64,000 nucleotides of DNA from an uncultured Defluviitaleaceae bacterium (lineage in GTDB: Bacteria > Bacillota > Clostridia > Lachnospirales > WRBF01): positions 18,213-82,212 of the forward strand of contig CAZHPA010000005.1 of the NCBI GenBank assembly GCA_964533945.1, written 5' to 3'. The position numbers and the translations under genes were made by a program. Below, in pieces: positions 40,186 through 55,633 of this stretch (the stretch's first letter is position 1; each line of letters starts with the position of its first letter). The notes under the pieces are model-generated. The model was given only the letters and a program-made list of their open reading frames with translations. It was not told the DNA's origin and made no database searches.

Positions 40186-40217
40186 TTGACATTTTTCGAC
40201 ATATTTTTTGTGATAAT
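40186..40217 (+). promoter_or_regulatory. promoter candidate upstream of the RinA-like gene (TTGACA; TGtGATAAT extended -10)
   Basis: TTGACA 40186-40191. TGTGATAAT at 40209-40217; the 20-nt spacer is long, so the extended -10 may act alone. Confidence 0.4.
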
Positions 40218-40258: not shown

Positions 40259-40678
40259 GTGAAGCTACCTAAAGTTGTTTACAGATATATTGAATACGAA
40301 CTGTTTCACTACGAAGAATATAAAAAGGAATTGTTGCTTGAAAGAGAGAGAATTTTGGAAAGCTACTCGTCATCTATTGGTGCCGAAATTCGTGGAAGCC
40401 AAAAAACCGACGCAACGCAAAGAAAGGTAATTAATCTTATGGAATCGACGGCTGTTTTGTCCCTTGAAAGAAAAATACGGGCTATTGATTATACGCTTGC
40501 AACTCTTTCCAAAACCCATGCTATGCTATTTAACGCATTGTATAACCAAAAAAGAACCGATATTTACAAAATTTGCAATGAGTTATCTATTTCAAAAGAA
40601 ACCTACGCACGCTATAAGCAGCATATAATACACAATGTTGGAAAAGAACTTGGAATTTTCAGTGGTATTGGGGTTTAG
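40259..40678 (+). CDS. RinA-family phage late-gene transcriptional activator
   Basis: GTG after AAAAGGAGG. YRYIEYELFHYEEYKKEL start and 139-aa size are typical of RinA/ArpU-type regulators placed just before terS. Confidence 0.65.
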   Translation: MKLPKVVYRYIEYELFHYEEYKKELLLERERILESYSSSIGAEIRGSQKTDATQRKVINLMESTAVLSLERKIRAIDYTLATLSKTHAMLFNALYNQKRTDIYKICNELSISKETYARYKQHIIHNVGKELGIFSGIGV

Positions 40679-40704
40679 AAAACTTAAAAGAGAGAGGTGG
40701 TGGA

Positions 40705-41331
40705 ATGCCTAAGAAAAAAGAAACCAATAAGCAGCAAGCCGAATTAACGCTTTTTGAAAAAAGCTTTTGCATTAGTTACATTCAAACTTTTAATGCAACG
40801 CAAGCAGCATTAAACGCTGGCTGTTCAATTGCCGACGCATATGAAACCGGACAGCACTTATTGCAAACACCCCGCATTAAAGCTGAAATTGAAAAGCTTA
40901 AAGAAATTAAAAGCGAAATGCTTGTATTTGATAAAGAAGACATACTTTTAAAGCAGATGAAAATAGCATTTGCCGACATTACAGATTTTGTGCAATTTGG
41001 AACAGAGGAAGTTGTAGTTGTCGATAAAAAAACTAACGAACCTCAAACTAAATTAATTAATTCTGTTTACTTGAAAGATTCCAAAAAGGTTGATGGTGGA
41101 ATTATTGATGAAGTTTACTGCACATCAACGGGTGTTGCAAGAATTAAGCTTGCCGACAGGCAAAAAGCTTTAGATTGGCTTTCTAAATATTTTAAAATGT
41201 ATCCTCTTGATGAGCATAAAATCGAGTACGACAGGCAGAAGCTTCTTACTGAAAAGAAAGGAAAACACGAACCGATTGAAATAAATATCAAAACGGCTAA
41301 ACCCAAAGAAGAAGAGGGAGAAAATCAATGA
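40705..41331 (+). CDS. terminase small subunit
   Basis: FCISYIQTFNATQAALNAGCS HTH pattern (Terminase_2 type), position before terL. Confidence 0.8.
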   Translation: MPKKKETNKQQAELTLFEKSFCISYIQTFNATQAALNAGCSIADAYETGQHLLQTPRIKAEIEKLKEIKSEMLVFDKEDILLKQMKIAFADITDFVQFGTEEVVVVDKKTNEPQTKLINSVYLKDSKKVDGGIIDEVYCTSTGVARIKLADRQKALDWLSKYFKMYPLDEHKIEYDRQKLLTEKKGKHEPIEINIKTAKPKEEEGENQ

Positions 41332-42567
41332 ATGAATAAGCTAATTAATCCTCATTTTGAACATTATTTGCATGATTGGCAACATAAATTTTATTTTTTA
41401 GTCGGGGGTTACGGTTCGTCTAAAAGCTATCATACTGCTTTAAAAATTGTTTTAAAGCTTTTGCAAGAAAAGCGAACAGCTTTAGTTGTGCGTCAAGTTT
41501 TTGATACACTTAGAAATAGTTGCTTTTCATTGCTTTGCGAAATAATAGACGAACTTATGCTTGATGAGTATGTTAGCTATACCGTTTCCCCTATTCAAAT
41601 TAAGTTTTCAAATGGTTCGGTTATATTGTTTAAAGGAATGGACAGACCAGAAAAGCTTAAATCTATTAACAACGTTACAATTGCTTGGCTTGAAGAATGT
41701 GCAGAACTTTCATATGGGGGATTTAAAGAAATTTTAGGAAGACTTAGGCACAAAACATTGCCGCTTCACTTTATTTTAACAACTAACCCTGTTGGCAAAA
41801 ATAATTGGGTTTACGAGCATTTTTTCATTAAGCTTAAAAATATACCTGCCAATTTTGAACAGCTGCTTTATGAAAGAAAAGAAATTTCGGTTGGAAATAT
41901 GTACTTTAATCATTCAACGGTTGAAGATAATTTATTTGTTCAAGATGAATATGTTAAACAGCTTGATGAACTTTTAGAATACGACCCCGATTTATACCGC
42001 ATTGCAAGAGAGGGAAAGTTTGGAGTATGCACAAACGTTGTCCTTCCTCAATTTAAAATAGCTAGGCATTACGAAGTTATTGAAGCTATTAATAATTGCG
42101 AAAATATAGTTAGGCGTGTTGGTATGGATTTTGGCTTTGAAACAAGCTATAACGCCGTTGTTAGAATGGCGATTGACGAGCAGAGCAAGGTTTTATACAT
42201 ATATTGGGAATATTATAAAAACAAAATGACAGACGATAAAACAGCATTAGAGCTTTCGGAATTTAAAGTTACAAAAGAGCTGATTTTTGCAGATTGTGCC
42301 GAACCTAAAACTATTATGTATTTTAGGCAGCAAGGCTTTAAAATGATTGGCGCTAAAAAATTTCAAGGAAGCAGGCTTGAAAATTTAAAAAAGGTTAAAC
42401 GCTTTAAACAAATTATTTGTTCTGAAAATTGCATTAATACAATTAAAGAACTTTCCGAATTAACTTATGCTAAAGATAAAAACGGATTTATTATTCAAGA
42501 CAAGTTCAACATTGACCCTCATACTTTAAGCGCTATTTGGTATGGGCTTGAAGGGGTTAAAATTTAA
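41332..42567 (+). CDS. terminase large subunit (PBSX-type)
   Basis: Walker A-like [15 protein letters not shown] Walker B-like, 411 aa. Confidence 0.88.
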
Positions 42568-42608
42568 TATGGGTGGTGGGCGGGATTAAAACAAAAGGAG
42601 GTGGCAAA

Positions 42609-44030
42609 ATGGACTACATGGACAGCATAAAAACCGAACTTAGCGGCATTTATGGGGAAGAAGTTTTAAAAGATTTATCGGAAATAATTCGCCTTTATGG
42701 AATGTATGACGGAGCAGGACAAAATTGGAGCATTGGACAACCCCTTGACTATATACCTACAAAAAAACGTACTAATTTTATTAAGAAGCTAATTAAAGAA
42801 GAAGCAAGGTTTTTGTTTGGAAAGACCCCTGAATTTACTTTTATTTCAAAAAGCGGACAAGATGTTTCTGGTGTTGAAGCATTTGTTAATAGAGCGCTTG
42901 AGGAAAATTTGTTTTCTGAAAAAATTGTTAAAGCTGCAAGAGATTGTTTTATAGGTAAAAGAGTTGCTGTTAAGCTATCGTATGCAGAAGATGAAGAAAT
43001 GCCTATCAAAATTAACTTTGTTCCGTCGCTTGGATTTGTGTTTTCGCCTTACGATGACGATATTGACAAGCTGCAATCAATAATTTTCTTTCACGGGCTA
43101 AATGATAAGTCAATGAAAGGCGAGCAGCGCATTTGGAAACAAAAGTATTGGATTGAAAACGGGCGCTGCTTTTTAGATGAAGGTGTTTACAATGGCTACG
43201 GTCAGTTGATTGAAAAACGTTTTAACAAACTTGATACAGGGCTTACGTTTATACCAGCAAAAGTTATTGTTAATGACGGCTTAACAGGAGATTTGAAAGG
43301 TGAAAGTGACGTTGCGGAAATTGTTGAACTGCAAAATGTTTATAATAGAATTTCAAGCGATGATATTGATGCGCTTAAATTTAATATGTTTCCGCAAACC
43401 GTTGCCGTTAACGCAAGCGAAGACAGTCTAAACCGCATAAGTATATGCCCTTCGGCTTTAATTGATTTGCAACCCGAATATACAACCGGAGATGCCATAC
43501 CTCAGCTTTATAAGCTTGAATCTAGTTTCAGCTATGACACAAGGGCAGAAAACGTTTTAAACAGGTTAAAAAGTGATATGCATGAACTTTTAAGCATTCC
43601 CAATCTAAGCCATAATGAACTTAGGTCTTTTGTTGCAAGCGGAAAAACATTAAAAGCTTTATATTGGCAACTTACAACACGCTGCGAGGAAAAGTTTTCC
43701 GCTTGGCGGCCTGCTTTAGTTTGGCTTGCTAAAAGCATTTTAAAAATGGGACAGCTTCATAATCTTTTTGAATTTGACATTCCTAAAGATTTATCAATTG
43801 ACGCTATAAACATCTACCCATTGCTTCAAGATGAACTTGATGAAAAGAAATCGGACATTGAAGCTGTTACACAAGGTGCTATGAGCAAAAAAGCTTATAT
43901 TAAAAAATGGAACAAAGACTATAATGACTTAATGGCAGAAAAGGAAATTACAGAAATTAAAAAAGACTATATTGACTTAGCGTCAGAAACAGCAGAAGAA
44001 AATTTAGAAGTTAAAGAGGAGGTGGAATAA
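42609..44030 (+). CDS. portal protein (SPP1 gp6-like)
   Basis: ATG 42609 after AAAGGAGGTGG; 473 aa directly after terL. Confidence 0.8.
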   Translation: MDYMDSIKTELSGIYGEEVLKDLSEIIRLYGMYDGAGQNWSIGQPLDYIPTKKRTNFIKKLIKEEARFLFGKTPEFTFISKSGQDVSGVEAFVNRALEENLFSEKIVKAARDCFIGKRVAVKLSYAEDEEMPIKINFVPSLGFVFSPYDDDIDKLQSIIFFHGLNDKSMKGEQRIWKQKYWIENGRCFLDEGVYNGYGQLIEKRFNKLDTGLTFIPAKVIVNDGLTGDLKGESDVAEIVELQNVYNRISSDDIDALKFNMFPQTVAVNASEDSLNRISICPSALIDLQPEYTTGDAIPQLYKLESSFSYDTRAENVLNRLKSDMHELLSIPNLSHNELRSFVASGKTLKALYWQLTTRCEEKFSAWRPALVWLAKSILKMGQLHNLFEFDIPKDLSIDAINIYPLLQDELDEKKSDIEAVTQGAMSKKAYIKKWNKDYNDLMAEKEITEIKKDYIDLASETAEENLEVKEEVE

Positions 44031-44512
44031 TGGACATTGAAGCTTTAAAGCAAATTGGAATTTTAGATGAGCAAGCGGAACAAATTTTATGTATGCACAA
44101 TTTAGCTTTAAAATCAGTTGAGGAACAAGCTGAAAAAAGTCGTTCTGAATTCGAACATAATTTAAAGTTTAAAACTGCACTTGAAAAACAACTTGCAAGT
44201 TCAAAAGCCAGAAATGTGCAGCTTGTAAATTCGCTTTTAGACTATAATGCATTGTCGCTTGGAGATGATGGCGAAATTGTTGGGCTTGCAGAGCAATTAG
44301 AAAAAATTAAAAAAGAAGCGGATTATATGTTTTATGAAGAAACCGAAAAACAGCCCTATGCCTTTACAGGAAGCGTTGGAAGTTTTTTGCGTAAAGACAA
44401 AGATGTTAAAAATCCTTTTGCAAAAGAAAGCTTTAACTTAACAGAGCAAAGTAAAATATTTAAAGAAGACAAAGAGCTTGCGCAAACTATGATAAGGCAG
44501 GCTTCTATTTAG
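44030..44512 (+). CDS. scaffolding protein (GP20-like)
   Basis: TAATG overlap with the portal gene; helical, charged 160-aa protein between portal and capsid. Confidence 0.65.
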   Translation: MDIEALKQIGILDEQAEQILCMHNLALKSVEEQAEKSRSEFEHNLKFKTALEKQLASSKARNVQLVNSLLDYNALSLGDDGEIVGLAEQLEKIKKEADYMFYEETEKQPYAFTGSVGSFLRKDKDVKNPFAKESFNLTEQSKIFKEDKELAQTMIRQASI

Positions 44513-44652
44513 TTAAGTTAGTTAAGACCAAATTAATCAAAAGTAAGTCAATCAAAGCAGAAAACTTTTAAGATTTTAATAAAACAGGCTTCCATATTAA
44601 CAAAATAGCAATCTATCTAAAAATAAAATTAAAATAAAAAGGGGTTTTAAAT

Positions 44653-45615
44653 ATGGTAAATGATTTGTCTGCAATTATTGTTCCTGAACTTTTTGCACCT
44701 TACGTTTCACAGCGAACTATGGAAAAATCGGCGCTTGTGCAATCAGGAATTATAACTCAAAATGCACAGTTCGACTCGCTTGCTTCGCAACCGACAGCAA
44801 TTGTTAATATGCCATTTTTCGAAGATTTAATAGGGGAATCTGAACAAATTATTGAAGGCGCCAGTCTTAACACAACTAAAATTTCCCCAATGAATGACAA
44901 AGCCGCAATAATTAGGCGCGCTAAAATGTGGAGTTCTACTGATTTAACAGCAGCTTTAAGCGGAGCAGACCCATCTGCGGCTATTGCTGAATTGGTTGCC
45001 GGTTTTTGGGTTCGTGATATGCAAAAAGAATTAATTGCAATTTTAAATGGGGCATTTGGTTCTTCAAGTATGGTGGAAAACATTTTAGATATTTCAAACT
45101 TAACAGGAACTGCTGCAAAATGGTCTGGAAGTTCATTCATTGACGCACAGCAGCTTTTAGGAGATGCTTCCGAATATTTAACAGCAGTTGTTATGCACAG
45201 TAAAACAAAATCTGCACTTAAAAAGCAAAACCTTTTAGATTCTATACCTCCTTCTGAAAATGCAGGGTTTGACACGTATCAAGGTGTTAGAGTTATTGTT
45301 GACGACAGTTGTCCTGTTTCCGAAGATGTTTATACATCATATTTATTTGGGCAAGGAGCAATTGCATACGGCAATGGAAACCCAGCAGGCTTTGTTTCAA
45401 TTGAAACAGATAGAGATAAAAAGAAAGGTTCCGGCGTTGACTATTTAATTAGCCGCAAAACTTTTATACTTCACCCAAGGGGAATTAAATTTACATCTGC
45501 AAGCGTTGCATTGCCTGAAGGTCCTTCAAGAGCAGAACTTTCGCTTGACCAAAATTGGATACGTGTTTACGAGCCTAAGCAAGTTAGAATTGTGCAGTTT
45601 AAACATAAGCTATAA
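44653..45615 (+). CDS. major capsid protein
   Basis: 320 aa; N-terminal IVPELFAPYVSQRTMEKSALVQSGI pattern typical of SPP1-gp13-like capsid proteins; position. Confidence 0.8.
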   Translation: MVNDLSAIIVPELFAPYVSQRTMEKSALVQSGIITQNAQFDSLASQPTAIVNMPFFEDLIGESEQIIEGASLNTTKISPMNDKAAIIRRAKMWSSTDLTAALSGADPSAAIAELVAGFWVRDMQKELIAILNGAFGSSSMVENILDISNLTGTAAKWSGSSFIDAQQLLGDASEYLTAVVMHSKTKSALKKQNLLDSIPPSENAGFDTYQGVRVIVDDSCPVSEDVYTSYLFGQGAIAYGNGNPAGFVSIETDRDKKKGSGVDYLISRKTFILHPRGIKFTSASVALPEGPSRAELSLDQNWIRVYEPKQVRIVQFKHKL

Positions 45616-45645
45616 TTTTGGCTAAAACACATAGAGGTGTTATTT

Positions 45646-45930
45646 ATGAATTTACAACAAAGGGAAATTTTAGCCAATCTAAAGCTTAATTTACGTGAGG
45701 AAAAGTTCCCGTGCTTTAGTGACGATGAGCTTACATATGTTTTAAACAAATATAATTTTGATTTAGAGCGAACAACTTATGAATGCTTGGTTATGAAAGC
45801 ACAAGACGATACAATAAGACTTCCTTCAGGACTATCAATTCAAAGCAGCAGAAACTATTGGCTTTCTATTGCTAAGCGGTATCGGCAAAATGCAGGGGGC
45901 AGCATTAAAAGAGAAGGTGAAGAATATTAA
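45646..45930 (+). CDS. head-tail connector / DNA-packaging adaptor protein
   Basis: ATG 45646 after AGAGG; small protein after the capsid gene. Confidence 0.55.
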   Translation: MNLQQREILANLKLNLREEKFPCFSDDELTYVLNKYNFDLERTTYECLVMKAQDDTIRLPSGLSIQSSRNYWLSIAKRYRQNAGGSIKREGEEY

Positions 45931-46303
45931 AGCTAACATTGAATCAATACGGCAAAAAATTAAACGCAGTATTGAAACTTTCTCTAATAAAGTTAAAGTT
46001 TACCGCAACACAAAAAATGAATTTAATGAACCTTTGCCTTTAGAAGAAATTTTTATTGCCGAGATTTTGGGGCAATATTACAAAGGGCAAATGCTTAGAA
46101 TAGGAACAAGCACAAGCACAAAGGGAGCAATTAAAACTGAATATGCCGAAAGGTTTTTGACGATTATCGACCTTAATTCATTAAAGATTAAAGAGGGCGA
46201 TTTTTTTATGCTTAACGGCATTAAATATAAAATTTTTGACTTAGGAAACGTTGAAAACATATATTTTGATTTTTCTATTGTTAGAACATCTTGGAATATT
46301 TGA
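45869..46303 (+). CDS. head-tail joining (head closure) protein; true start probably near 45917-45926
   Basis: Position and size. The track start overlaps the upstream ORF by 62 nt; GTG 45917 or ATT 45926 behind AAGGTGA would give ~126 aa. Confidence 0.55.
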   Translation: MLSGIGKMQGAALKEKVKNIKANIESIRQKIKRSIETFSNKVKVYRNTKNEFNEPLPLEEIFIAEILGQYYKGQMLRIGTSTSTKGAIKTEYAERFLTIIDLNSLKIKEGDFFMLNGIKYKIFDLGNVENIYFDFSIVRTSWNI

Positions 46304-46313
46304 GGTGGTTTTA

Positions 46314-46661
46314 ATGGGTTTAACGCTTAACAGCTTAAAACTTGACAATTTTCTGCAGAGCAGTGAAAACCATGTTAAAGAAGCTATGTACGCTACAGGG
46401 AAAAAAGCCGCTCTTGAGCTTGAAAGTGCTGCTAAATCAAGTGCGCCTTGGTTAGACAGGACAGGGCGTGCGCGGCGTAGCTTAACGGGCGAATGTACTA
46501 TAGACGGCAATATGCTTATTATTTCTCTTTATGGCAAAGAAAAGCATTCGGTTCTCCTTGAACTTTGCAAAGAACAAAAGTTTTCTATACTTGCTCCAGC
46601 CATTTACAAAAACTATGAAAACATACTGCATAAAATTACTGCATCTGCTTTTAACCCCTAA
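46314..46661 (+). CDS. HK97 gp10-like tail-connector protein
   Basis: ATG 46314 after GAGGTGG; APWLDRTGRARRSL resembles the gp10-family P.dTG.Lr.S motif. Confidence 0.6.
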   Translation: MGLTLNSLKLDNFLQSSENHVKEAMYATGKKAALELESAAKSSAPWLDRTGRARRSLTGECTIDGNMLIISLYGKEKHSVLLELCKEQKFSILAPAIYKNYENILHKITASAFNP

Positions 46662-46688
46662 AGCCTTTGCTTTAGGGGTTTGCTATTA
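46655..46688 (+). terminator. terminator-like hairpin between head-completion and tail genes
   Basis: 10-bp perfect stem cccctaaagc/gctttagggg (46655-46678), 4-nt loop, tail tttgctatt. Confidence 0.5.
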
Positions 46689-47054
46689 AAGAAAAAAGGA
46701 GGGGGGAAATTTACGTTTAAAAAAATATATATGTTGCTTAAAGAAAATGGATTTAACGTTTATTCTATAGGGCAGCATGAAGGAATTTGCAACGAGCCTT
46801 ATGTTGTAATTGGCGAAAACGGGCAATTCCCGTTTTCAAAGCCTCAAATTGTATATAGCATCGTTGACATTATGCTATTTTACCCTATAGGAAAATATAC
46901 GGAATTTTCAGATTTTGTTGAAGCAGTTAGAGAATGCTTGAAGCAAATTCGAGAGTTGAAAAATATGTGCGAAATGAGTGCAATTGTTATAGACCACGAG
47001 TTAAAAGCATATACGCAAACTATTAAGTATCAGGTTTATAAAAGGAGGGCGTAG
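46680..47054 (+). CDS. tail completion/terminator-like protein (start uncertain: TTG 46680 or ATG 46731)
   Basis: Position before the major tail gene. A strong AAGGAGGGGGG lies inside the 5-prime end of the track ORF. Confidence 0.5.
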   Translation: MLLKKKGGGKFTFKKIYMLLKENGFNVYSIGQHEGICNEPYVVIGENGQFPFSKPQIVYSIVDIMLFYPIGKYTEFSDFVEAVRECLKQIRELKNMCEMSAIVIDHELKAYTQTIKYQVYKRRA

Positions 47055-47056
47055 CT

Positions 47057-47599
47057 ATGGTAATTGAAAAAGCTTTAACAGGAGTTGCATTAGTTGTTTT
47101 AAAAGATAAAAAAAATAAAACCTATTCTTTTACAACGGCAACGATGGCTAATGCAAAAGTTAATATTGAAGAAGGCAAAAAGACAGAGCTTATAATTAAA
47201 GGCGTACTTAAAGCTCAAAAGAAATTTGATTCAACAATTAAAGGTGTTGATGTTGAATTTCAAGATAATATGTTTTTGCCCGAAGTTGTTGCATTACTTC
47301 AAGGCGGAACTGTTGAAAAAGATACTCAAGGAAGGTTTGTTAAATATACACCTATACCAGCAGGAACTGCACCAAACCTTGAAAGCTTTGATGTTGAAAT
47401 TTATACAGAAGAAACAGACACAAGCGGTCAAACGCTTAGGTATGCCAAATTAACACTTCCAAACGGAAAAGGGGAGCCTGTGGAACTTAACTTTGAAGAT
47501 GATAAGTTTTTTTCGGCAAAATATGTTATTAAAACGTATCCAGCGTATGGCGAGCCACCTTATAAAATAGAAATGGTTACTAGCTTGCCTGCAATTTAA
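47057..47599 (+). CDS. major tail protein
   Basis: 180 aa, located immediately before the chaperone/tape-measure genes. Confidence 0.7.
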   Translation: MVIEKALTGVALVVLKDKKNKTYSFTTATMANAKVNIEEGKKTELIIKGVLKAQKKFDSTIKGVDVEFQDNMFLPEVVALLQGGTVEKDTQGRFVKYTPIPAGTAPNLESFDVEIYTEETDTSGQTLRYAKLTLPNGKGEPVELNFEDDKFFSAKYVIKTYPAYGEPPYKIEMVTSLPAI

Positions 47600-47635
47600 T
47601 AAAATATTGCTATATCAAAAGAAAGGGGGAACAAT

Positions 47636-48034
47636 ATGGAGTTAAATAAAATAGCACAAGGAGAAGTTGTTAAACTTTCGCCTTTTATTTCAGATGAACC
47701 ATTTGTTGTTAGGCTAAAGCGTCCATCACTGTTACAGCTTGCAGCAAGCGGAAAAATTCCAAATCCGCTTTTAGGTGTTGCAGAACAGCTTTTTAATGGC
47801 AACTTTAGCAATTCTAAGCAAAACATTAAAGAAACAGCAGAATTTCTTTTGCTTATTGCCAAAAACGCTTTAGTTTTTCCAACATTCGATGAGCTTTGCG
47901 AAAAAGAAATTAATTTAACAGATTTACAGCTAATTGAAATTTTTAACTACACACAAATGGGAGTTAAAGCTTTGGAAAATTTTCGTGGCTTCAAAGGAAG
48001 TTATGAGAATACTGACGCTTTGCATGACATATAA
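47636..48034 (+). CDS. tail assembly chaperone (XkdN-like)
   Basis: LKRPSLLQLAASGKIPNPLLGVAEQLF motif; position before the tape measure gene. Confidence 0.7.
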   Translation: MELNKIAQGEVVKLSPFISDEPFVVRLKRPSLLQLAASGKIPNPLLGVAEQLFNGNFSNSKQNIKETAEFLLLIAKNALVFPTFDELCEKEINLTDLQLIEIFNYTQMGVKALENFRGFKGSYENTDALHDI

Positions 48035-48200
48035 AACAAAACCCAGCGAAATTTTAAAGCTTGATGATGAATATACCGCCTTTTGCTTTGATGAAGCGCT
48101 AAGCTATATTTTGAATGAGCTTTTAAAACAAAATGGCAAAATCCCAAAATGGGATAATCGAAGCGATAATTTAATTTCATTTTTGCTAAATGGACTTTGA
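48003..48200 (+). CDS. second tail-chaperone ORF (gpT-like part), overlapping the 3-prime end of 47636-48034 in the +1 frame
   Basis: The ORF is open from 47934. An internal ATG at 48003 follows AAAGGAAG. PSEILKLDDEYTAFCFDEAL resembles the C-terminal extensions of chaperone frameshift products. Confidence 0.5.
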   Translation: MRILTLCMTYKTKPSEILKLDDEYTAFCFDEALSYILNELLKQNGKIPKWDNRSDNLISFLLNGL

Positions 48201-48209
48201 GGTGGTTTT

Positions 48210-49304
48210 ATGGCTATAAACGCAGGTACAGTTGCGGCTTATTTAACGCTTGATACAAGCAAATATTTGCAATCTTTAAAAGACGCAACAGAACAAACAC
48301 GGCTTTTCAAAACATCAAGCGGCGAAGCTAACGTATCACTCGAACTGCTTAAAAACACAGCTTCTATTACTGAAATGTATATTGGCAAAAATTTATCGGG
48401 GCAAATTAAAAGCACAACCGAAAACGTTTCGCTGCTTGATAAAGTTTTTTCAGAACTTAATAATGCACTTTCAAAAACAGAACATATAGAAGCTGTAATT
48501 CAAAACTTAGGAAAACTATCTAATGAAGCTGTTTTTACGGCAGCTTCATTAGGGGATTTAAGCAACACTGTTACAACTGAAATGCTTTTTAATTTCGACT
48601 TGCTTATGGATAAAAAGAAATTATCATTTAAAGAAGAATTAGAAGAATTTGGGAAAACAGAACAAGAAAAAGTAATAATTTTTTCAACAGAGCTTACAAA
48701 AAGAGAACAAATGCTTAAAAAATCACTTGATGAAAACAAAACAGTATTAAAAAGTTTTGTTCCAACATTTGCAAGCATAGGCGAAGAATATGGCAATGCT
48801 CTATTAAACGGTATTCAATCAACACGAAACAGAATACTTAATTATATTTCGCAAATTGCATCAGCAGTTAGAAATGCGGCAAATTACGGCTCATATACTC
48901 CATATTTCAATGGATATTCAAGCGGCACAAATAATGCTGCAGCAGGGCTTTCTGTTGTAGGCGAAAACGGTATGCCTGAAATTGTTGATTTTTCAGGAGG
49001 AGAGCAAGTTGTTAATTTCAAAGACAGCATTCAGCTATTAAATACAGCAGCAAAAACAGCGTTTGAATATAGTAATGCTTTTGCTGATATTTTGTATTCA
49101 AATAAAAATGTAAATAAAGATACAAACTTCGACTACAACCAGCTATCAAATACTATTGTAAACGCTGTTACAAATGCCATTGAAAAAAGCGTTAAGCCTA
49201 ACATCGTTTATAGCCCTACTTATAACAGCCCAGCAGAAGCTTCTATTTCTGAACTTATGCAACAAGATAAAATTAATTTGCGGCGCATTGGGCTTGGTTT
49301 TTAA
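48210..49304 (+). CDS. tape measure protein (short, 364 aa)
   Basis: Position after the chaperone pair; helical repetitive composition. Confidence 0.7.
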   Translation: MAINAGTVAAYLTLDTSKYLQSLKDATEQTRLFKTSSGEANVSLELLKNTASITEMYIGKNLSGQIKSTTENVSLLDKVFSELNNALSKTEHIEAVIQNLGKLSNEAVFTAASLGDLSNTVTTEMLFNFDLLMDKKKLSFKEELEEFGKTEQEKVIIFSTELTKREQMLKKSLDENKTVLKSFVPTFASIGEEYGNALLNGIQSTRNRILNYISQIASAVRNAANYGSYTPYFNGYSSGTNNAAAGLSVVGENGMPEIVDFSGGEQVVNFKDSIQLLNTAAKTAFEYSNAFADILYSNKNVNKDTNFDYNQLSNTIVNAVTNAIEKSVKPNIVYSPTYNSPAEASISELMQQDKINLRRIGLGF

Positions 49305-49324
49305 AAAAGAAAGGGGTGGCATAA

Positions 49325-50197
49325 ATTAAACTTGAATATATTAACAAACACACAAAAAATTCGGTTGTTTTTGGAAATGAAGCGCCGTTTTTTTATTTAA
49401 GCCAAAAAGGAATGGACGGAAGCGGAGGGGACGCTATTTTAGTTAAAGCACCGCTTCAGTATGGGCAAACTTATTTAGGGGCAAATATTAGCGAAAGACT
49501 TATTACGGTTGAATGCTGCTTAGTTACTAGTTCAGCTCAAGAAGAAGAAGTGTTAAGGCAAACTTTAATTTCAACATTAAATCCTTTAGCAGTTGGTGAT
49601 TTAATTGTTTATGGGGAAACGTTCGAAAAAATGTTTCCAGATGTTCAAGTTGTAGATGGTCCAGTTTTTAAAGATGCTAATTACACTTTGCCTGATGGAA
49701 TTTTATATTTTAACTTTACTGTTGTTGTGCCACAAAACTTTGCAACCGACTTAAATTTAAGTAACCACACTTTAGTGGAAGTTGAGCCTCTTTTTGAATT
49801 TATACTTAAATTTGATGACTATGTTGAATTTGGAAATATTGCAAGCGGAAATATTGTTATCGACAACACAGGAGATGCCGAAGCCGCTTTAGCTATTGAA
49901 ATACCCGGGCCTGTTCATACCCCGACTATAAAAAATTTAACAACAGGGGAATTTATACGAATTTTTACTCCTATTGCAGCTAACGAAACTATGCATATTA
50001 ACACAGGCTTTGGCAATAAATCGGTTGTAATAAAAGATGATAACGGAAATTCAAGAAATGCTTTTCATTACATTGATTTAAACAGCACTTTTTTTAGGCT
50101 GAAAGTTGGCTTAAACAATGTTGAATTTAGGGCAGAAGTTGGCAACGATACAGCAAATATTAAAATTAGATATAGAAAAGTTTATTTAGGAATTTAG
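49325..50197 (+). CDS. distal tail protein (Dit-like), probably initiating at ATT 49325
   Basis: The frame is open from 49325. GGGGTGG RBS at 49313-49319, 5 nt before the ATT. The track ATG 49412 would remove 29 in-frame residues IKLEYINKHTKNSVVFGNEAPFFYLSQKG. Confidence 0.65.
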   Translation: MKLEYINKHTKNSVVFGNEAPFFYLSQKGMDGSGGDAILVKAPLQYGQTYLGANISERLITVECCLVTSSAQEEEVLRQTLISTLNPLAVGDLIVYGETFEKMFPDVQVVDGPVFKDANYTLPDGILYFNFTVVVPQNFATDLNLSNHTLVEVEPLFEFILKFDDYVEFGNIASGNIVIDNTGDAEAALAIEIPGPVHTPTIKNLTTGEFIRIFTPIAANETMHINTGFGNKSVVIKDDNGNSRNAFHYIDLNSTFFRLKVGLNNVEFRAEVGNDTANIKIRYRKVYLGI

Positions 50198-50223
50198 CTA
50201 GAAATTAATTAGGAGGTTATGAT

Positions 50224-51108
50224 ATGGCTGAATGGAGCTGTTTTTTTAATAGCTTTGAGCATGATAGGCGGTACACAGCGGCTGAATTTGCCGAATATTT
50301 TTCAAGCTTAATTGGAAATGGCATTTTTCAAGGCGGAAACAATTTAAAAGTTAACGAATATAGAAATATGGACATATCTGTTGGAACAGGGAAAGCTTTT
50401 ATTAATGGCTACTATTATGTTAACAAGGAAGCACCAAAAACATTAACGCTTTCTAATTCACATGTTACATTGCCAAGAATTGATAAAGTTGTTTTAAGGC
50501 TTAATTTATCGCAATCGGAAAGATTAATTACGGCAACTATAAAGGAAGGAACGCCAAGTTCAAACCCAACTCCTCCCGAATTACAGCGTAACAACGCTAT
50601 ATGGGAACTTGGGCTTGCAGACATTCGGGTTAATGCTTCAACTACTCACATTACCCAATCAAACATTACAGATTTAAGACTTTCAAGCGATTTTTGCGGT
50701 ATTGTTACAGGATTTTTAGAACAGCCCGATTTAAACAGCGTATTTAATCAGTATTCTAGTAAGTTTGGCGAAATTACTAACTTTTGGGATAATTGGTTCA
50801 ATCAAACAAGTAGTTCCTATTACGGTTGGTTTAACCAATCTAAGGCGGAACTTTATTCATATGTTAGCACCGATTTTGATGATTGGTCTAGGCGTTCTGG
50901 ATATCAGTTAACAACAACGTTTGCAGCAGATGGAAGTATAGCCGAAATAATTAAAAATATAAACAACAATTCTTTATTTGCAACACGGCTTACAGAATTT
51001 TTAAGCAATGGGAGAATTAAAGAAACAATTTCATTTGCAGAGCCGCCTTTAACAGCTACAAAATTAACAACATTTTCGGCAACCGATATAATTTGCACTT
51101 ATTCTTAG
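50224..51108 (+). CDS. tail/baseplate structural protein (fiber-like N-terminal domain)
   Basis: DRRYTAAEFAEYFSSLIGNGIF...GKAFINGYYY...RIDKVVLRL pattern seen in phage tail proteins. Confidence 0.55.
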   Translation: MAEWSCFFNSFEHDRRYTAAEFAEYFSSLIGNGIFQGGNNLKVNEYRNMDISVGTGKAFINGYYYVNKEAPKTLTLSNSHVTLPRIDKVVLRLNLSQSERLITATIKEGTPSSNPTPPELQRNNAIWELGLADIRVNASTTHITQSNITDLRLSSDFCGIVTGFLEQPDLNSVFNQYSSKFGEITNFWDNWFNQTSSSYYGWFNQSKAELYSYVSTDFDDWSRRSGYQLTTTFAADGSIAEIIKNINNNSLFATRLTEFLSNGRIKETISFAEPPLTATKLTTFSATDIICTYS

Positions 51109-51111
51109 GCG

Positions 51112-52230
51112 GTGGATTTCTTGAATAATAAAGGAGTTAGAGTTTTAAGCAATTCACTTGCTTTTTTAGGTGAAATTGACAATTTCGAAGAGCTTATTTT
51201 CACAACACGCCTAACAAGCTTTGGGGAATTTGAAATAGTAATAAACAAAAACAAGCCGGAAAGCCAGCTTTTACAGCATGGAAACATTTTGTTTTTAGAT
51301 GCAAGCAAAGCAGGAATAATAGAACACGTTGAAATTCGCTTTAACAAAGGATTAGAAATAGTTTTTGCAAGCGGCTTTTCACTTTTACATATTATTTCCA
51401 AGCGAATTACTTTCCCTTTTTCTAAATTGAATAAATGGAAACTAAACAGCAATGGAGAAAACGTTATTAAGTCTTTAATGGATTACAATTTAGGAAATAC
51501 AGTGCAAAGCGCAAATCGAAAGATGGAACGGGTTTTAATTGCACCAAATCAAAACAGAGGCAGCCAAATAGAATTTGAAACCGAATTTGAACAGCTTAAC
51601 TATGAAATTGAGCGAATTGCAAATTCTACGGATTTAGGAATTAAAATGACGCTTGATACTTTAAATAAAAAGTTTGTATTTGATGTGTTTTGCGGAAAAG
51701 ACTTAACTATAAATCAAAATACACAGCCTCCTGTTATTTTTGCCTTAGAATATGATAATATTGCAAACCAAAATTTCACGCTAAGTTCTGTAGGTTATAA
51801 AAATGTAGCAATTGTTGCCACTGATATTGTTGAAATTAAAGGCGTTCAAGATAGAACTATAGTTAAAGTTAATGACGAAATTTGTGGAGAAGAAAGACGA
51901 GAAGTTTTTGTTAATGGCAGACTTGCTTCTAAAGAAGGGCAAGGAAGTGAAGCGTTAAAGCTTGAGCAATACGGCAAAGAAAAGCTTTTGGGTATGCCAT
52001 TTATTAATATGTTGGAAGGTACAATTAACCCAAACGATATAATGAAATATGGTAAAGATTATTTTTTGGGGGATACCGTCACAATGAAATACGACAAAAC
52101 AACGCTTAATTCCAAAATAACCGAAGTTACTGAAAAATGGACTGTTAAAGACGGATATTCAATTGATTGTACTTTTGGTAATAAAACGCCAACGCTAATC
52201 GACAAAATAAAACAAGAATTAAGGGGTTGA
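51112..52230 (+). CDS. Gp37-like siphovirus tail tip protein
   Basis: GEFEIVINKN...ILFLDASKAGIIEHVEI resembles the Sipho_Gp37 family; an alternative TTG start lies at 51121. Confidence 0.55.
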   Translation: MDFLNNKGVRVLSNSLAFLGEIDNFEELIFTTRLTSFGEFEIVINKNKPESQLLQHGNILFLDASKAGIIEHVEIRFNKGLEIVFASGFSLLHIISKRITFPFSKLNKWKLNSNGENVIKSLMDYNLGNTVQSANRKMERVLIAPNQNRGSQIEFETEFEQLNYEIERIANSTDLGIKMTLDTLNKKFVFDVFCGKDLTINQNTQPPVIFALEYDNIANQNFTLSSVGYKNVAIVATDIVEIKGVQDRTIVKVNDEICGEERREVFVNGRLASKEGQGSEALKLEQYGKEKLLGMPFINMLEGTINPNDIMKYGKDYFLGDTVTMKYDKTTLNSKITEVTEKWTVKDGYSIDCTFGNKTPTLIDKIKQELRG

Positions 52231-52235
52231 ATTAA

Positions 52236-52922
52236 TTGAGTTGGGCAGAAATTAAAAAATCAGTAAATAGTAATGTTATTTTTCCTTTAAATGAAATCGG
52301 TTTAAACAAGGTAACTTTTACAACAAACAGCACATGGACTTGCCCCGACGGAGTTAATGTTGTTTATGCAACGGGTATTGCAGCGGGAGGAGATGGGGGA
52401 ACTGCCGGGATTTTTTCTACGAATATTGAATGCGGAGGAGGCGGTGGCGACCGTGGGCAATTTTGCTTTAGAAGACCTATAAAAGTTACTCCTAACCAAA
52501 CATATTCTGTAACCGTTGGAGCAGGAGATACAGTTTTTCATACGCTAACTCTTAAAAAAGGTACTGGCGGCAATAGTGGAAGTGACGGAGGTACTGGCGG
52601 CGGAAACGGAGGCGGAAACGGTGCTAGAATTAGCGCAACCGGAGGTTATTATCAGCCCGCAACTAAAGGCAAAGGAACTAATGGAGGCAATACGCTAATT
52701 AGATATTCAACCATTACAGGTAATCCCATTATAGCGTTTGGGGGCGGTGGTGCTGGTGCTCCAGAATTTATTGGAACAGTTATTACTGATGCAAAAGGCT
52801 ATGGTGGAAATACTGGTTCTTCCCCAGGCATTTATGGAGCAGGCGGAGGAGGTGGCGCGTATGACGGAGGAAGCGGACTTGGCACAAAAGGTTCAAATGG
52901 TGTGTTGGCGTTGGAATGGTAA
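52236..52922 (+). CDS. glycine-rich tail-associated protein
   Basis: TTG after AAGGGG; TWTCPDGVNVVYATG.AAGGDGG followed by multiple GGxGG runs. Confidence 0.6.
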   Translation: MSWAEIKKSVNSNVIFPLNEIGLNKVTFTTNSTWTCPDGVNVVYATGIAAGGDGGTAGIFSTNIECGGGGGDRGQFCFRRPIKVTPNQTYSVTVGAGDTVFHTLTLKKGTGGNSGSDGGTGGGNGGGNGARISATGGYYQPATKGKGTNGGNTLIRYSTITGNPIIAFGGGGAGAPEFIGTVITDAKGYGGNTGSSPGIYGAGGGGGAYDGGSGLGTKGSNGVLALEW

Positions 52923-52934
52923 TAGGAGGTTAAC

Positions 52935-53279
52935 ATGTATATAAAACGTTCCGATACAGTAAATCTGAGTTTTAAAATTAAAATTTCAGATATTTTTTTA
53001 TGTCCACACCAAAACGATAAAATTTACATTACAATAAAGGAAGAAATTGGCGCAAACTCTCCTATTGTTTTGCAAAAATCATATCCTGAAAACATTAGCT
53101 TTGATAAGGAAAAATTAAGCTTTACCACAAAATTTACACAAGAAGAAAGCGCGCTGTTAACAAAAGACACATATTACTGTGATGTTAAAATCTATTTAAA
53201 AGATAACGATTTTTATGTGTCTAGCGATAATATAGAATTAATTCATGTTTATGGCACTGTAAACGGCGTTGTTTCATAA
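52935..53279 (+). CDS. hypothetical phage protein
   Basis: 114-aa ORF after AGGAGG. Confidence 0.5.
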   Translation: MYIKRSDTVNLSFKIKISDIFLCPHQNDKIYITIKEEIGANSPIVLQKSYPENISFDKEKLSFTTKFTQEESALLTKDTYYCDVKIYLKDNDFYVSSDNIELIHVYGTVNGVVS

Positions 53280-53308
53280 TAGCTTAATAATAGGAGGTGA
53301 TTAAACAA

Positions 53309-54007
53309 ATGACTTTTGTTTTTGATAGTAATCTGGAAATTGTTAAAGGCTCAGATGGCAAATCTGCATACGAATTAGCAGTTGAAAACGGTTTTAACGG
53401 AACTATAGAACAATGGCTTGAAAGCTTAAAACTTGGACAAGGAGTATCAACGGCAAGTAGCATAAATTTAGATGGATATTTAATAGGCAAAGATACAACT
53501 AGTGCTATAAATTCATCAACAAGCCTTTTAAAAGCAATAAGTTTGCTTGAAGCTGGGAAGATGGTTTATCGTGTTTATAATACATCTGATGTTAGCGTTT
53601 CTTCAGGTTTAGATACACCCCAGTACAGACTGCCCGGAATACATGTTTTTAATTCTCCACCAGAAAATAGCTATGGTTTTCCTGCAGATTTTGACTTTAC
53701 AACTACTTATACAAATGCAGCATTACTAAGCATTCCTATTGCTGCCGTAACTTCTTTCAATAATAATGCTTTAAGCCTTTACCAAAGACAAGCCTACCAA
53801 ATGCTATTTAAAGCAGCAGATAGTAGAATTTGGATTAGGTATTGGAGTGGCGGGACTGAAGTTAGTAAATGGGAGTTGCTTGTTGGAAAAAATGGCAGCA
53901 TAGTCAATTCTGCATATGAAGCGGCAAAAAGCGGCGGATTTAACGGGACAGAATCTGAATTTAATACAGCTCTTGCAAAAATCTGTAATGCTAATACTGC
54001 AACTTAA
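53309..54007 (+). CDS. tail fiber-like protein
   Basis: ATG 53309 after AGGAGG. N-terminal GKSAYELAVENGFNGTIEQWLESLK fiber motif, repeated near the C-terminus (NSAYEAAKSGGFNGTESEF). Confidence 0.6.
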   Translation: MTFVFDSNLEIVKGSDGKSAYELAVENGFNGTIEQWLESLKLGQGVSTASSINLDGYLIGKDTTSAINSSTSLLKAISLLEAGKMVYRVYNTSDVSVSSGLDTPQYRLPGIHVFNSPPENSYGFPADFDFTTTYTNAALLSIPIAAVTSFNNNALSLYQRQAYQMLFKAADSRIWIRYWSGGTEVSKWELLVGKNGSIVNSAYEAAKSGGFNGTESEFNTALAKICNANTAT

Positions 54008-54274
54008 GCTATTTCAAGTATATAGAAAATGGGTAAACAGCAGCTTCTAATGCAACATAGGAAAGCTAAACAAAATACAAAATAAGCAAAAACTTAATGT
54101 TTATTTTTAAGAACACAAAAACAGAAGCATAGCTTGCTGCACTTTATTTAAAGAGAATGAATAATATAAATTAAGCTATTTTTTAAATAAAAGTTTTATA
54201 CTTTGTTTTTAGTTATAGCTTGATAAGTTTAATTTTAGTTTTATTGTATTTTTATGCAAAAAGGAGTTGATTTT

Positions 54275-54925
54275 ATGCGTGATATAAGCTTATTATATCC
54301 CGAATTACAAACTATTGTTGAAAAGTTTTTGGCAGACTGTAAAGCAGCCGGCTTACCTGTTATAATAACAGAAACATGGCGAAGTAAAGAAGAGCAAGAT
54401 GCGCTTTATGCTAAAGGAAGAACGGCACCAGGTAATATTGTAACAAATGTTAAATATCCTGATAGTATGCACAATTGGGGCGTTGCTTTCGACTTTGCAA
54501 GAAATGTTAGAGGCAAAGAATATGACGATTCGGATGGATTTTTTGCTAAAGTAGGAAATATAGGAAAAAAATATGGCTTAACTTGGGGTGGCGATTGGAA
54601 AAGCTTTGTAGATAAACCACATCTTGAAATGACAAAATTTAATATTAAAGACTTAAAAGCAAAATACGGAACACCCGATAATTTTAAAAGTACATGGAAA
54701 AAGGCAAATGTTTCCGAAGCTCCAAAAGCAGAGACACCAAAGCCAGAAGCCAAAAGCCAAAATAAAGTTATTCAAAAACCTGAAATAGATATCGAAACAG
54801 CAATTAACATACTCATTGAAAATAAAATAATTACAAGCCCGGATTATTGGCTTAAAAACTATAATAAGCTTGAATATTTAGACAAGCTTATTATAAATAT
54901 GGCAAAAAGGTTGGTGTCGGTATGA
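54275..54925 (+). CDS. M15-family (VanY-like) peptidoglycan peptidase endolysin
   Basis: ATG 54275 after AAAGGAG; ETWRSKEEQDALYAKGRT, SMHNWGVAFD, DKPHLE zinc-peptidase motifs. Confidence 0.8.
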   Translation: MRDISLLYPELQTIVEKFLADCKAAGLPVIITETWRSKEEQDALYAKGRTAPGNIVTNVKYPDSMHNWGVAFDFARNVRGKEYDDSDGFFAKVGNIGKKYGLTWGGDWKSFVDKPHLEMTKFNIKDLKAKYGTPDNFKSTWKKANVSEAPKAETPKPEAKSQNKVIQKPEIDIETAINILIENKIITSPDYWLKNYNKLEYLDKLIINMAKRLVSV

Positions 54926-55191
54926 AAATAAATTGGAGTGTTCGATTTAAAAATCCACTATTTATAGCACAGGCTATAGGGGCAATTGTAGCTCCCATTT
55001 TAGTTTACTTTAACGTTCAAGTAAGCGATATAACAACATGGCAGGCAATGTTTGATATTATTACTAAAGCAATTCAAAACCCTTTTATTGTATTTAATAT
55101 TGGGCTTGCTATTTTTAATGCTATAACAGACCCAACAACAGCAGGAATTTCAGACAGCGAAAGGGCTTTAAGTTATTCAAAGCCCCAATGA
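54922..55191 (+). CDS. holin (phi LC3 family type)
   Basis: INWSVRFKNPLF start, two TM segments, ITDPTTAGISDSERALSYSKP tail; ATGA overlap with the endolysin gene. Confidence 0.75.
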   Translation: MKINWSVRFKNPLFIAQAIGAIVAPILVYFNVQVSDITTWQAMFDIITKAIQNPFIVFNIGLAIFNAITDPTTAGISDSERALSYSKPQ

Positions 55192-55210
55192 AAATAAGGT
55201 GGTTTAACAT

Positions 55211-55549
55211 ATGATAGATATATTTGCATTGGCAAAGTGGTTAACAGCTATAGGCACTATATGCGCCCTATTATTAGCTGTGTATACTAGATTTAGCGAG
55301 CTGGTGTTAAAAAGAATAGCAGCAAATGAAAAAGAAGTTAAAGAACTTAAAGCATGGACAACAGCACAGCAACAAGATATTAAAGACGCAATCGAAGGTA
55401 ATATATTGCTTTTAAGGGCAACACGAGTTGGGCTTGAGGCATTAAAAAACGGAGTTGCTAACGGAAACGTAACTAAAGCTGTTACAGAAATTACAGAATA
55501 CCTTGAAATGAGGGCAAGTTCTACTAAGAGCGGAACCGATTTCTTATAG
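55211..55549 (+). CDS. membrane-anchored coiled-coil protein (possible lysis accessory)
   Basis: N-terminal TM helix plus a helical C-terminus; last ORF of the cluster. Confidence 0.45.
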   Translation: MIDIFALAKWLTAIGTICALLLAVYTRFSELVLKRIAANEKEVKELKAWTTAQQQDIKDAIEGNILLLRATRVGLEALKNGVANGNVTKAVTEITEYLEMRASSTKSGTDFL

Positions 55550-55590
55550 TGTACTTAAAAACAAAAAATAGAAAATAAAAATAAATATAG

Positions 55591-55633
55591 AAGCGGACAT
55601 CTACTAACAATAGGTGTCCGCTTTAAAGTTTTT
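55591..55633 (+). terminator. rho-independent terminator closing the phage-like cluster
   Basis: Stem aagcggaca/tgtccgctt extendable to 13 bp, tail ttaaagttttt. Confidence 0.65.

Follow-up and report, generated by a model that had tools for sequence, protein, structure and literature searches.

The window analysed here is a 64-kb stretch of DNA from an uncultured Defluviitaleaceae bacterium, and all coordinates are given in its numbering. Positions 40259 to 55549 (15.3 kb) hold a cluster of 23 co-oriented open reading frames (ORFs), all intact and on the + strand, which encode a phage-type late activator, a head and packaging module, a siphovirus-like tail and a lysis cassette (Table 1), and which we discuss as a candidate domesticated particle module. 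Window ORFs of at least 90 amino acids (aa) were scanned against the profiles of Pfam, PHROGs and NCBIfam, the GH123 gene at 31991–35107 being covered through a precomputed Pfam list. These scans confirm the canonical late gene order reported in a preliminary description of this DNA, whose count of about 24 ORFs is corrected to 23. The 23 ORFs score at full length against their family profiles, and the encoded proteins fall within the length range of their families except for TerS, which is shorter (208 aa versus 253–279 aa in several relatives). The ORF coordinates also agree with the two tight junctions described earlier: the portal and scaffold ORFs share base 44030 (a 1-nt overlap, TAATG), and the endolysin and holin ORFs overlap by 4 nt at 54922 (ATGA).

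Table 1. Features of the late-gene cluster and its leader, in window coordinates.
Feature	Position	Strand	Basis
Leader array, four copies of the 16-nt motif AAAVCYTRACATTWTA, spacing 70/72/72 nt	39812–40042	+	Motif scan
Candidate extended -10 promoter TGTTATAAT, upstream of the leader hairpin	40066–40074	+	Read from sequence, inference only
Terminator-like hairpin followed by a T-run, between mupG/leader and rinA	40114–40144	+	Hairpin search, folding
Candidate rinA promoter: TTGACA, 20-nt spacer, extended -10 TGTGATAAT (40209–40217)	40186–40217	+	Read from sequence
RinA-family late transcriptional activator, 139 aa	40259–40678	+	TIGR01636, 58.4 bits (cut-off 31.9); phrog_36, phrog_248; 55% identity to the L002/L015 homologue
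Small terminase subunit TerS, 208 aa	40705–41331	+	Terminase_2, 3.9e-32
Large terminase subunit TerL, PBSX/Terminase_3 type, 411 aa	41332–42567	+	Terminase_3 (PF04466) and Terminase_3C (PF17288), both full length
SPP1-type portal protein	42573–44030	+	PF05133 (SPP1_portal), 4.8e-28
Scaffolding protein, short form, 160 aa	44030–44512	+	PF06810 (Phage_scaffold)
Major capsid protein, SPP1 gp13 type, 320 aa	44653–45615	+	Gp13-like (Pfam); phrog_247, 5.6e-105; PDB 4an5/6r3a, E=4.9e-73
Head-tail connector candidate	45646–45930	+	phrog_4020; gene call in L001
Head-tail connector candidate	45890–46303	+	phrog_8435; gene call in L001
Neck1/tail-completion protein	46314–46661	+	phrog_5
Tail terminator	46731–47054	+	phrog_7585, phrog_176
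Tail tube protein, 180 aa	47057–47599	+	phrog_6686, 1.9e-42
Tail assembly chaperone pair (G 47636–48034; T extension 47934–48200)	47636–48200	+	phrog_6280, phrog_6541; frame analysis
Mini tape measure protein, 364 aa	48210–49304	+	Weak tape-measure PHROG matches; blastp to the L020 tape measure
Distal tail protein Dit	49412–50197	+	SPP1_Dit and Sipho_tail; phrog_33
Tail-tip/virion structural protein, 294 aa	50224–51108	+	phrog_1220, 1.9e-69
Sipho_Gp37-type minor tail protein	51112–52230	+	PF14594, 2e-63; phrog_538
Glycine-rich tail protein, candidate receptor-binding protein	52236–52922	+	Gly_rich_2
114-aa protein, window copy only	52935–53279	+	No family match (Pfam, PHROG, NCBIfam); no homologue in relatives
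Fibre-like protein with conserved N-terminal tail-fibre motif	53297–54007	+	Several tail-fibre PHROGs cover residues 12–70
Peptidase_M15_4/VanY-type endolysin	54254–54925	+	Pfam
Holin	54922–55191	+	Phage_holin_1
112-aa protein, N-terminal stretch hydrophobic in translation; last cluster gene	55211–55549	+	phrog_1009, weak
Strong terminator hairpin ending the cluster, facing the convergent SHOCT gene	55590–55624		Hairpin search

The rinA gene is placed directly upstream of terS, with 26 nt between them. TerS keeps the N-terminal helix-turn-helix (HTH) DNA-binding domain, which aligns to the SF6 small terminase (3zqp) and to an isolated DNA-binding domain (4zc3), and the protein covers positions 1–138 of the 141-position Terminase_2 profile. 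TerL shares 62% identity with its counterpart in phiCp-D and 59.6% with the one in PBP180, a defective, PBSX-like Bacillus phage. The head and packaging module, with its SPP1-type portal and scaffold, resembles those of phiCD24-1 (C. difficile) and SPP1 (B. subtilis): the capsid protein, which matches SPP1 gp13 (Table 1), is 68% identical to that of phiCD24-1 (44 kb) and 64–72% identical to many Clostridium prophage capsids, and lies close to those of 44–46 kb phages. SPP1 gp13 builds a T=7 head with a capacity of ~45 kb. The scaffold, in contrast to those of full phages (208–211 aa; blastp with L020 and phiCD24-1), lacks ~48 N-proximal residues. The capsid protein, being so close to that of a 44-kb phage, argues for a full-size head; the shorter scaffold, the only hint of a smaller head, could reduce head size.

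The tail genes indicate a non-contractile tail of siphovirus type, judging from the phrog_6686 tube, Dit and the Sipho_Gp37-type protein; families for a sheath or a baseplate were found in none of the cluster ORFs by Pfam or PHROGs. The tube protein is 37% identical to that of phiCD24-1. The tape measure protein departs from that of a full phage: its residues 1–121 align to residues 1–130, and residues 140–364 to residues 1386–1599 (43% identity, E=4e-50), of the 1603-aa protein of the full prophage relative L020 (blastp). The window protein thus looks like the product of an internal deletion that spared both functional ends. Tape measure proteins follow a rule of ~0.15 nm of tail per residue, so 364 aa predict a tail of ~55 nm, compared with ~240 nm for the 1603-aa relative. 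The T extension of the tail assembly chaperone lies in the +1 frame relative to G, rather than the usual -1, and the extension is conserved in all relatives. The region also holds an A_AAT_TTT heptamer, yet a -1 slip there meets a stop codon.

The cluster is flanked by host genes on both sides: PTS-EIIBC, a murQ-like SIS gene, rpiR and mupG on the left, and a convergent SHOCT-domain gene followed by murA and an M23 peptidase gene on the right. The SHOCT-domain gene (55664–56263, - strand) is a host gene outside the element, with 59% identity to L075 9378–9692. The earlier statement that phage early functions are missing is borne out by the profile scans, in which integrase, recombinase, CI/Cro, antirepressor, primase, helicase, single-stranded-DNA-binding protein (SSB) and methylase families were absent from the ORFs of the 64-kb window. 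Other window ORFs with a Pfam match have housekeeping or cell-surface roles: they include the aro (shikimate) genes, efp, tig, clpP and clpX, and encode a topoisomerase, EF-G, enzymes of c-di-GMP metabolism and proteins with cohesin, SLH or dockerin domains. Four ORFs have no Pfam match (360–947, 13050–13409, 13466–13852 and 61423–62448), and the single XRE-type HTH protein of the window (8826–9272) lies 31 kb from the cluster, beside tRNA genes. No tRNA gene adjoins the cluster (the nearest are at 8 kb and 30 kb), and no direct or inverted repeat of at least 12 nt joins both of its boundaries as attachment (att) repeats would. The switch proteins of related elements (S24 repressor, 63-aa ORF, ImmR and ImmA), used as tblastn queries, had no match adjacent to the window cluster, and the palindrome AACGAA-N3-TTCGTT, found at the switches of several relatives, is absent from the window. 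Two candidates were rejected: an intact temperate siphovirus prophage, given that the 64 kb contain no integrase, switch or replication module and no such boundary repeats, and an F-type tailocin, given that a complete and intact set of packaging and head genes (TerS, TerL, portal, scaffold, capsid) is present.

It is highly improbable that this picture is an artefact of assembly or binning, or one part of a split phage whose early genes lie elsewhere in what is an ordinary prophage. The source is a metagenome-assembled genome (MAG), in which mis-joins are possible; against this, the window is contiguous across 64 kb with housekeeping genes on either side of the cluster, the cluster and its left junction (murQ-like/rpiR/mupG) recur at 99–100% identity in an independent Logan assembly of SRR10912417, and MAGs that were assembled independently show late-only clusters as well. 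In composition the element is indistinguishable from its host: its GC content is 35.0% (host, 34.6%), its codon usage is like that of the host, and tetranucleotide correlations between element and host (r 0.977–0.990) compare with 0.981–0.988 between host segments.

The preliminary description had raised the possibility that the cluster is fixed between mupG and murA in related genomes, which is not the case: mupG or murA flanks were found in none of the relative loci compared. The best murA matches have 74% identity, one of them from GCA_964492715.1, and Defluviitalea and its relatives ~65%. In the closest available murA locus (L075; 74% identity in murA), the SHOCT-murA-M23 order is kept, the clpC operon precedes it and the element is absent. 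Because synteny between the two genomes spans only ~3 genes, this empty site neither proves nor excludes mobility.

The tail is more distinctive than the capsid protein, which is of an ordinary kind, and the family was traced with the tail tube protein as marker, by scanning the genomes of species representatives together with JGI metagenomes and IMG/VR. The protein belongs to a tight group of ~20 relatives with 56–84% identity, all from MAGs or metagenomes, below which there is a gap down to ~40%, where the carriers include 45–50 kb Caudoviricetes contigs. Relatives with at least 63% identity come only from termite-gut MAGs and metagenomes and represent at least eight GTDB species representatives; a termite-gut origin is documented for the Lab288 and Cu122 relatives only, these sample codes standing for the guts of Labiotermes labralis and Cubitermes ugandensis (PMC7024585). 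The relative nearest to the window copy shares 84% identity with it in the tail tube protein and 72% in the capsid protein. What is new here is that the cluster belongs to a family, with several late-only members, that is found only in termite-gut Defluviitaleaceae-like MAGs.

The relative loci differ in their surroundings and in the extent of the module (each double label, L007/L013, L008/L014, L027/L018, L029/L017, L028/L012, L002/L015 and L026/L020, denotes one locus). Four late-only loci, including L007/L013, L008/L014 and L027/L018, have host genes on both sides. In L007/L013 and L008/L014, from two species, Lactamase_B, OmdA and decarboxylase genes and a divergent S24-HTH (CI-like) repressor gene lie on the left, the cluster runs from TerS to the holin and a weakly NlpC/P60-like protein, and a host Amidase_3 gene follows on the right. 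L029/L017 has Ala racemase, acetate kinase, ImmA/ImmR and a DUF927 fragment to the left of a cluster that starts with TerS and within which the contig ends; conversely, the contig of L028/L012 begins within the cluster, which extends from the connectors to the lysis genes and is followed by acetate kinase. L002/L015 carries an S24 repressor (the contig ends just past it), a 63-aa ORF and the RinA homologue to the left of a TerS-to-holin cluster, and a host GH18-SLH gene on the right. The full-size prophage L026/L020, from the same MAG as L015, has early-type genes (Lar, YopX) on its left, encodes a MuF-like 318-aa head protein, a 208-aa scaffold and a 1603-aa tape measure protein; the locus breaks off within the tail genes.

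We note that the L027/L018 locus (L027 3615–17239, co2_145 MAG) is organized differently. Its left flank consists of an FtsW-family gene, a U32 peptidase gene and ZapA, and its right flank of ACT and GGDEF genes; between them, head-tail genes extend from TerS to Gp37 with no lysis genes, no regulator and a tape measure protein of intermediate size (752 aa). Reduction may have reached another stage at this locus, or lysis genes belonging to it may be located elsewhere.

The late-only members share a set of reductions relative to the reference full-length phages, for which we used the full prophage L026/L020 and phiCD24-1. The tape measure protein of most members has 322–403 aa, compared with 1603 aa in L020 and 1842 aa in phiCD24-1; the scaffold has 144–169 aa by gene calls, compared with 208 and 211 aa; and the SPP1 gp7/MuF-like minor head protein is absent from all of them. 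Between portal and scaffold, where related phages carry the MuF-like protein, phiCD24-1 has a 472-aa protein that is likewise missing here. The late module measures 15 kb, against 31 kb in phiCD24-1, a 44-kb phage that in addition carries an integrase, repressors, an excisionase, a replication protein and SSB, all absent here.

Neighbour-joining (NJ) trees with bootstrap point to a single origin of these elements. In the tree of TerL, portal and capsid protein (1145 ungapped columns), the late-only elements form one clade with the full prophage outside (98%), and the window copy pairs with L015 (96%). In the tree of five tail genes (994 columns), a core group with short tape measures (the window copy, L012, L013, L014, L015 and L016) is recovered at 100%; L037, although its tape measure is short too, falls outside this core group with weak support.

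Selection was examined in L013 and L014, which belong to different GTDB species and have the element between the same host genes. Gene-by-gene Nei-Gojobori estimates of synonymous divergence (dS) and of the ratio of nonsynonymous to synonymous divergence (dN/dS) gave, for four host flank genes (71–79% aa identity), dS of 1.05–2.45 and dN/dS of 0.07–0.13; for 19 element genes (66–93% identity), dS of 0.72–2.04 (median 1.07) and dN/dS of 0.036–0.196; and for the repressor (91% identity), dS of 1.31 and dN/dS of 0.039. Because the element has dS comparable to that of its flanks and low dN/dS throughout, the L013/L014 element fits vertical inheritance with every gene under strong purifying selection, and not a decaying remnant. 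For the window copy, all 15 shared ORFs are intact and synonymous sites are saturated against every relative, so there is no usable dN/dS. The purifying selection that the preliminary description asked about is seen in L013/L014; for the window copy the indications are indirect, namely the late-only state of its whole clade and the intact ORFs.

These results bear on an unlikely alternative, in which the locus is an inert prophage remnant whose early half was deleted and whose late half has not yet decayed, with nothing useful made. Prophages are often reduced to late-only remnants (Bobay et al. 2014, in the summary given by PMC10538166), the window copy is limited to one genome and one locus and lacks even the repressor kept by relatives, the DUF927 fragment of L029 looks like the leftover of a replication gene, and the Lab288 copy is broken up by cargo insertions. 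Against decay speak the intactness of 23 of 23 ORFs with their overlaps preserved and the conservation of the frameshifted chaperone extension. The tape measure and scaffold proteins were shortened together with their functional termini kept, which is unlike random decay. In addition, the late-only state is common to the whole clade, whose members stand at saturated synonymous distance from one another; the early genes would thus have been lost long ago without anything having decayed. Together with dN/dS of 0.04–0.20 for every gene of L013/L014 at dS ~1, the late-only clade favours long-term maintenance, in keeping with the earlier view that the locus is not a product of simple decay.

We therefore lean towards the reading that the locus is a domesticated particle module working like PBSX or a gene transfer agent (GTA): a streamlined descendant of an SPP1/phiCD24-like temperate siphovirus, fixed in the chromosome, that has kept only the genes for making particles and releasing them. 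The best explanation for the family as a whole would be a monophyletic group of late-only elements in termite-gut Defluviitaleaceae-like bacteria, maintained by purifying selection. The comparative case for such a domestication, built from trees, gene content and substitution rates, appears good, and the domestication of defective prophages is a well-known phenomenon (Bobay et al. 2014, cited in PMC10538166).

Several points weigh against domestication. All hosts are uncultured, and the element and its relatives are known from their genes alone. The evidence for co-divergence and selection comes from L013/L014 rather than from the window copy, which is without a close relative and sits at a locus seen nowhere else; in L013/L014 themselves, dS ~1 is near saturation, which makes similar dS a coarse test. 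The left end of L015 is cut by the end of its contig just past the repressor. Nothing in the genes shows the small head or the non-specific packaging of a classical GTA, given the DNA-binding domain that TerS retains and a capsid protein close (~68% identity) to that of a 44-kb phage. The remaining points also speak for a quite improbable alternative, a helper-dependent, satellite-like 'mini-phage' with virion and lysis genes of its own that would need a full phage in the same cell in order to be induced, replicated and excised or integrated, and would move between genomes in this way: members occupy different chromosomal sites, with S24-HTH repressor or ImmR/ImmA switches typical of mobile elements; a single MAG carries both the mini element L015 and the full prophage relative L020/L026; and members have exchanged their lysis cassettes and distal tail genes. 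Because these modules differ and one copy has gained toxin-antitoxin and toxin cargo, the comparison shows that exchange with the phage gene pool goes on. In known phages, moreover, RinA acts downstream of an early circuit, which is missing here.

A mini-phage of this kind is, however, difficult to reconcile with the lack of an integrase, att repeats, a primase or replication gene and an excisionase in the window copy, L007, L008 and L027, or with the shared locus and host-like dS of L013 and L014. Host synteny between genera survives only in ~3-gene blocks, so that differing flanks are no proof of mobility, and the head genes of L015 and the co-resident L020 are only 61.6% identical, with no sign of helper-satellite matching. 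In described satellites an integrase goes together with a replication/primase module, whereas genes for a tail or for lysis are missing, and none is known to encode full tail and lysis genes while lacking an integrase. Capsid-forming phage-inducible chromosomal islands (PICIs) and related phage satellites resemble the present element in size (~15 kb) and in having terminase, portal and capsid genes of their own, whereas the pattern is otherwise reversed here, with a full tail and lysis module and no integrase or replication gene; membership in this class was rejected on that basis.

If the locus is a domesticated particle module, its expression would probably begin in the leader between mupG and rinA. 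Four copies of AAAVCYTRACATTWTA lie there (0.27 expected) and nowhere else in the window, and the motif is absent from the relative loci searched for it. Each of the first three copies is followed by a hairpin, and the ~450-bp leader folds better than shuffled controls (z = -3.5). The array is possibly a regulator-binding array. An ORF that crosses it (39854–40075) is probably spurious, because it has no Pfam or PHROG match and spans the tandem DNA repeat. The terminator-like hairpin downstream of the array, which sits between the extended -10 candidates TGTTATAAT and TGTGATAAT, could be either the mupG terminator or an attenuator. The -35-like sequence TTGACATTTTT of the candidate rinA promoter resembles the AAAVCYTRACATTWTA motif; a fifth motif-like sequence (40186–40201) overlaps this -35. 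A search of the leader against Rfam gave nothing at gathering thresholds and, at E<=1, one meaningless 19-bit match.

The spacer of the candidate rinA promoter also contains a perfect Spo0A-box heptamer, TGTCGAA (40195–40201, - strand), which is a lead only, as the window holds four such heptamers against 3.99 expected by chance; if real, it would tie particle production to the entry into sporulation.

The window copy has neither a phage repressor nor a phage operator, in contrast to relatives with S24-HTH or ImmR/ImmA switches, and host-wired expression, taken as necessary in the preliminary description, is a plausible inference for this copy. In the S24-HTH relatives, the palindrome AACGAA-N3-TTCGTT occurs at L002 971–985, L007 3150–3164 and L008 3055–3069, just downstream of a TTGACA/TATAAT promoter that faces the late genes, and is probably the operator of the repressor. 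In L007 (901–3058) and L008 (807–2964), an Orn/Lys/Arg decarboxylase gene begins within the last 23 nt of the S24-HTH repressor gene upstream of it, an arrangement that looks like an operon uniting the regulator of the element with a host-type metabolic gene.

For the domesticated module we propose the following sequence of events. A signal from outside any phage lysogeny switch would turn on a promoter in the 40.0–40.26 kb leader, and RinA, a clear member of its family, would then activate a single long operon, as in the paradigm of S. aureus RinA. Terminase, portal, short scaffold and SPP1-type capsid protein, all encoded in the cluster, would assemble into DNA-filled heads, and the connectors, tube, chaperones, mini tape measure, Dit and tip proteins into short non-contractile tails of the predicted dimensions, after which the holin and the M15 endolysin would lyse the producer cell. 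Having no integrase, excisionase or replication genes, the element cannot propagate as a phage, and for this reason any packaged DNA would be cut from the unreplicated chromosome. Such DNA could be random, or could start at a pac site in terS and extend into the host genes downstream, and the particles may serve to transfer DNA or to kill.

A bolder proposal, which we regard as doubtful, goes further: the family would be a new lineage of domesticated siphovirus-type particles in Gram-positive bacteria, vertically inherited in termite-gut Defluviitaleaceae, in which a pac-type TerS packages in situ, making the element a dedicated lateral transducer that repeatedly exports the downstream genes (murA, spoIIQ-like M23, cotF, fba and further ones) in place of random DNA. 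Packaging from a fixed chromosomal pac site would follow from the retention of a pac-type TerS and an SPP1-like headful machine together with the lack of excision and replication.

Among the systems to which the domesticated module can be compared, PBSX and the recently described FpGTA are the only two counted as GTA-like for Gram-positive bacteria, and it is difficult to tell the gene cluster of a GTA from a dead prophage (PMC12946183). Like PBSX and PBSX-like elements such as PBP180, the element is chromosomal, has no integrase or working replication, follows the order activator, terminase, portal, scaffold, capsid, tail and lysis, and encodes a TerL of the Terminase_3 ('PBSX') type; its relatives, in addition, carry a divergent Xre/CI-type repressor, as PBSX does. 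It differs in having a non-contractile tail, with no sheath or baseplate genes, where PBSX is a contractile myovirus, in its size (15 kb versus ~28 kb), in its activator (RinA family versus Xpf) and, in the window copy, in the lack of a repressor. FpGTA of Faecalibacterium is likewise a late-only, phage-derived system of anaerobic gut Clostridia, whereas it is podovirus-like, is encoded by two operons (10.5 and 5.5 kb) rather than the single siphovirus-like operon here, and has a TerS without a DNA-binding domain (PMC12946183). PBSX has a small head and packages random 13-kb DNA, and for FpGTA particles with 8.4–8.9 kb of packaged DNA have been demonstrated (PMC12946183).

With RcGTA the element shares a head-tail cluster of ~15 kb, a short siphovirus-like tail, the absence of replication and integration genes, and vertical inheritance under purifying selection (here seen for the relatives L013/L014). 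The two are not homologous: RcGTA_tape, the only RcGTA family of NCBIfam with a match, scored 12.7 bits, far below its cut-off of 220, and the capsid belongs to the SPP1 gp13 family, so that membership in the RcGTA family was rejected. In further contrast to RcGTA, the lysis genes lie within the cluster and the DNA-binding domain of TerS is retained; the lack of an obvious domain of this kind in TerS is treated as a GTA feature (PMC12946183). The GTA-like character proposed earlier is supported as regards the late-only gene content without integrase and replication genes. Two features expected of RcGTA-type GTAs are not seen: TerS has not lost the domain, and the capsid protein, close to SPP1 gp13, does not point to a small head. 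By homology the element belongs to neither the RcGTA nor the PBSX family, and it would be an independent lineage.

The locus and its relatives are accordingly a candidate third GTA-like lineage in Gram-positive bacteria, marked by a siphovirus tail and a single ~15-kb operon, and one that can be tracked phylogenetically. The full prophage relative provides the starting point of a reduction series that comprises the mini tape measure, the short scaffold, the loss of the gp7/MuF-like protein and the loss of early genes. If particles are made, they would offer a route of gene exchange or of warfare between strains among uncultured fibre degraders that are a dominant group in termite guts, and the retained pac-type TerS would make it possible to ask whether a domesticated element can act as a lateral transducer from a fixed site. 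If none are made, the family would still be a clean case of long-term purifying selection on a full set of virion genes, for which an explanation would still be needed.

The Labiotermes (Lab288) MAG copy (L078 2200–8700; L010 3294–6876 and 10552–12086) keeps all structural genes, with cargo wedged between them. As read from translations rather than from profile searches, the terS-terL gap holds a nucleotidyltransferase-like/HEPN-like pair, a Phd-like antitoxin and a resolvase-like fragment; an M78 peptidase gene lies between terL and the portal gene, and DUF4417 and a CdiA_C toxin domain lie between scaffold and capsid genes. Elsewhere in the window are two cellulosome-type genes: that at 997–6714 encodes a 1905-aa protein that combines three cohesin domains with InlB B-repeat/MBG/YDG domains and SLH repeats, and the GH123 enzyme mentioned above has both cohesin and dockerin domains.

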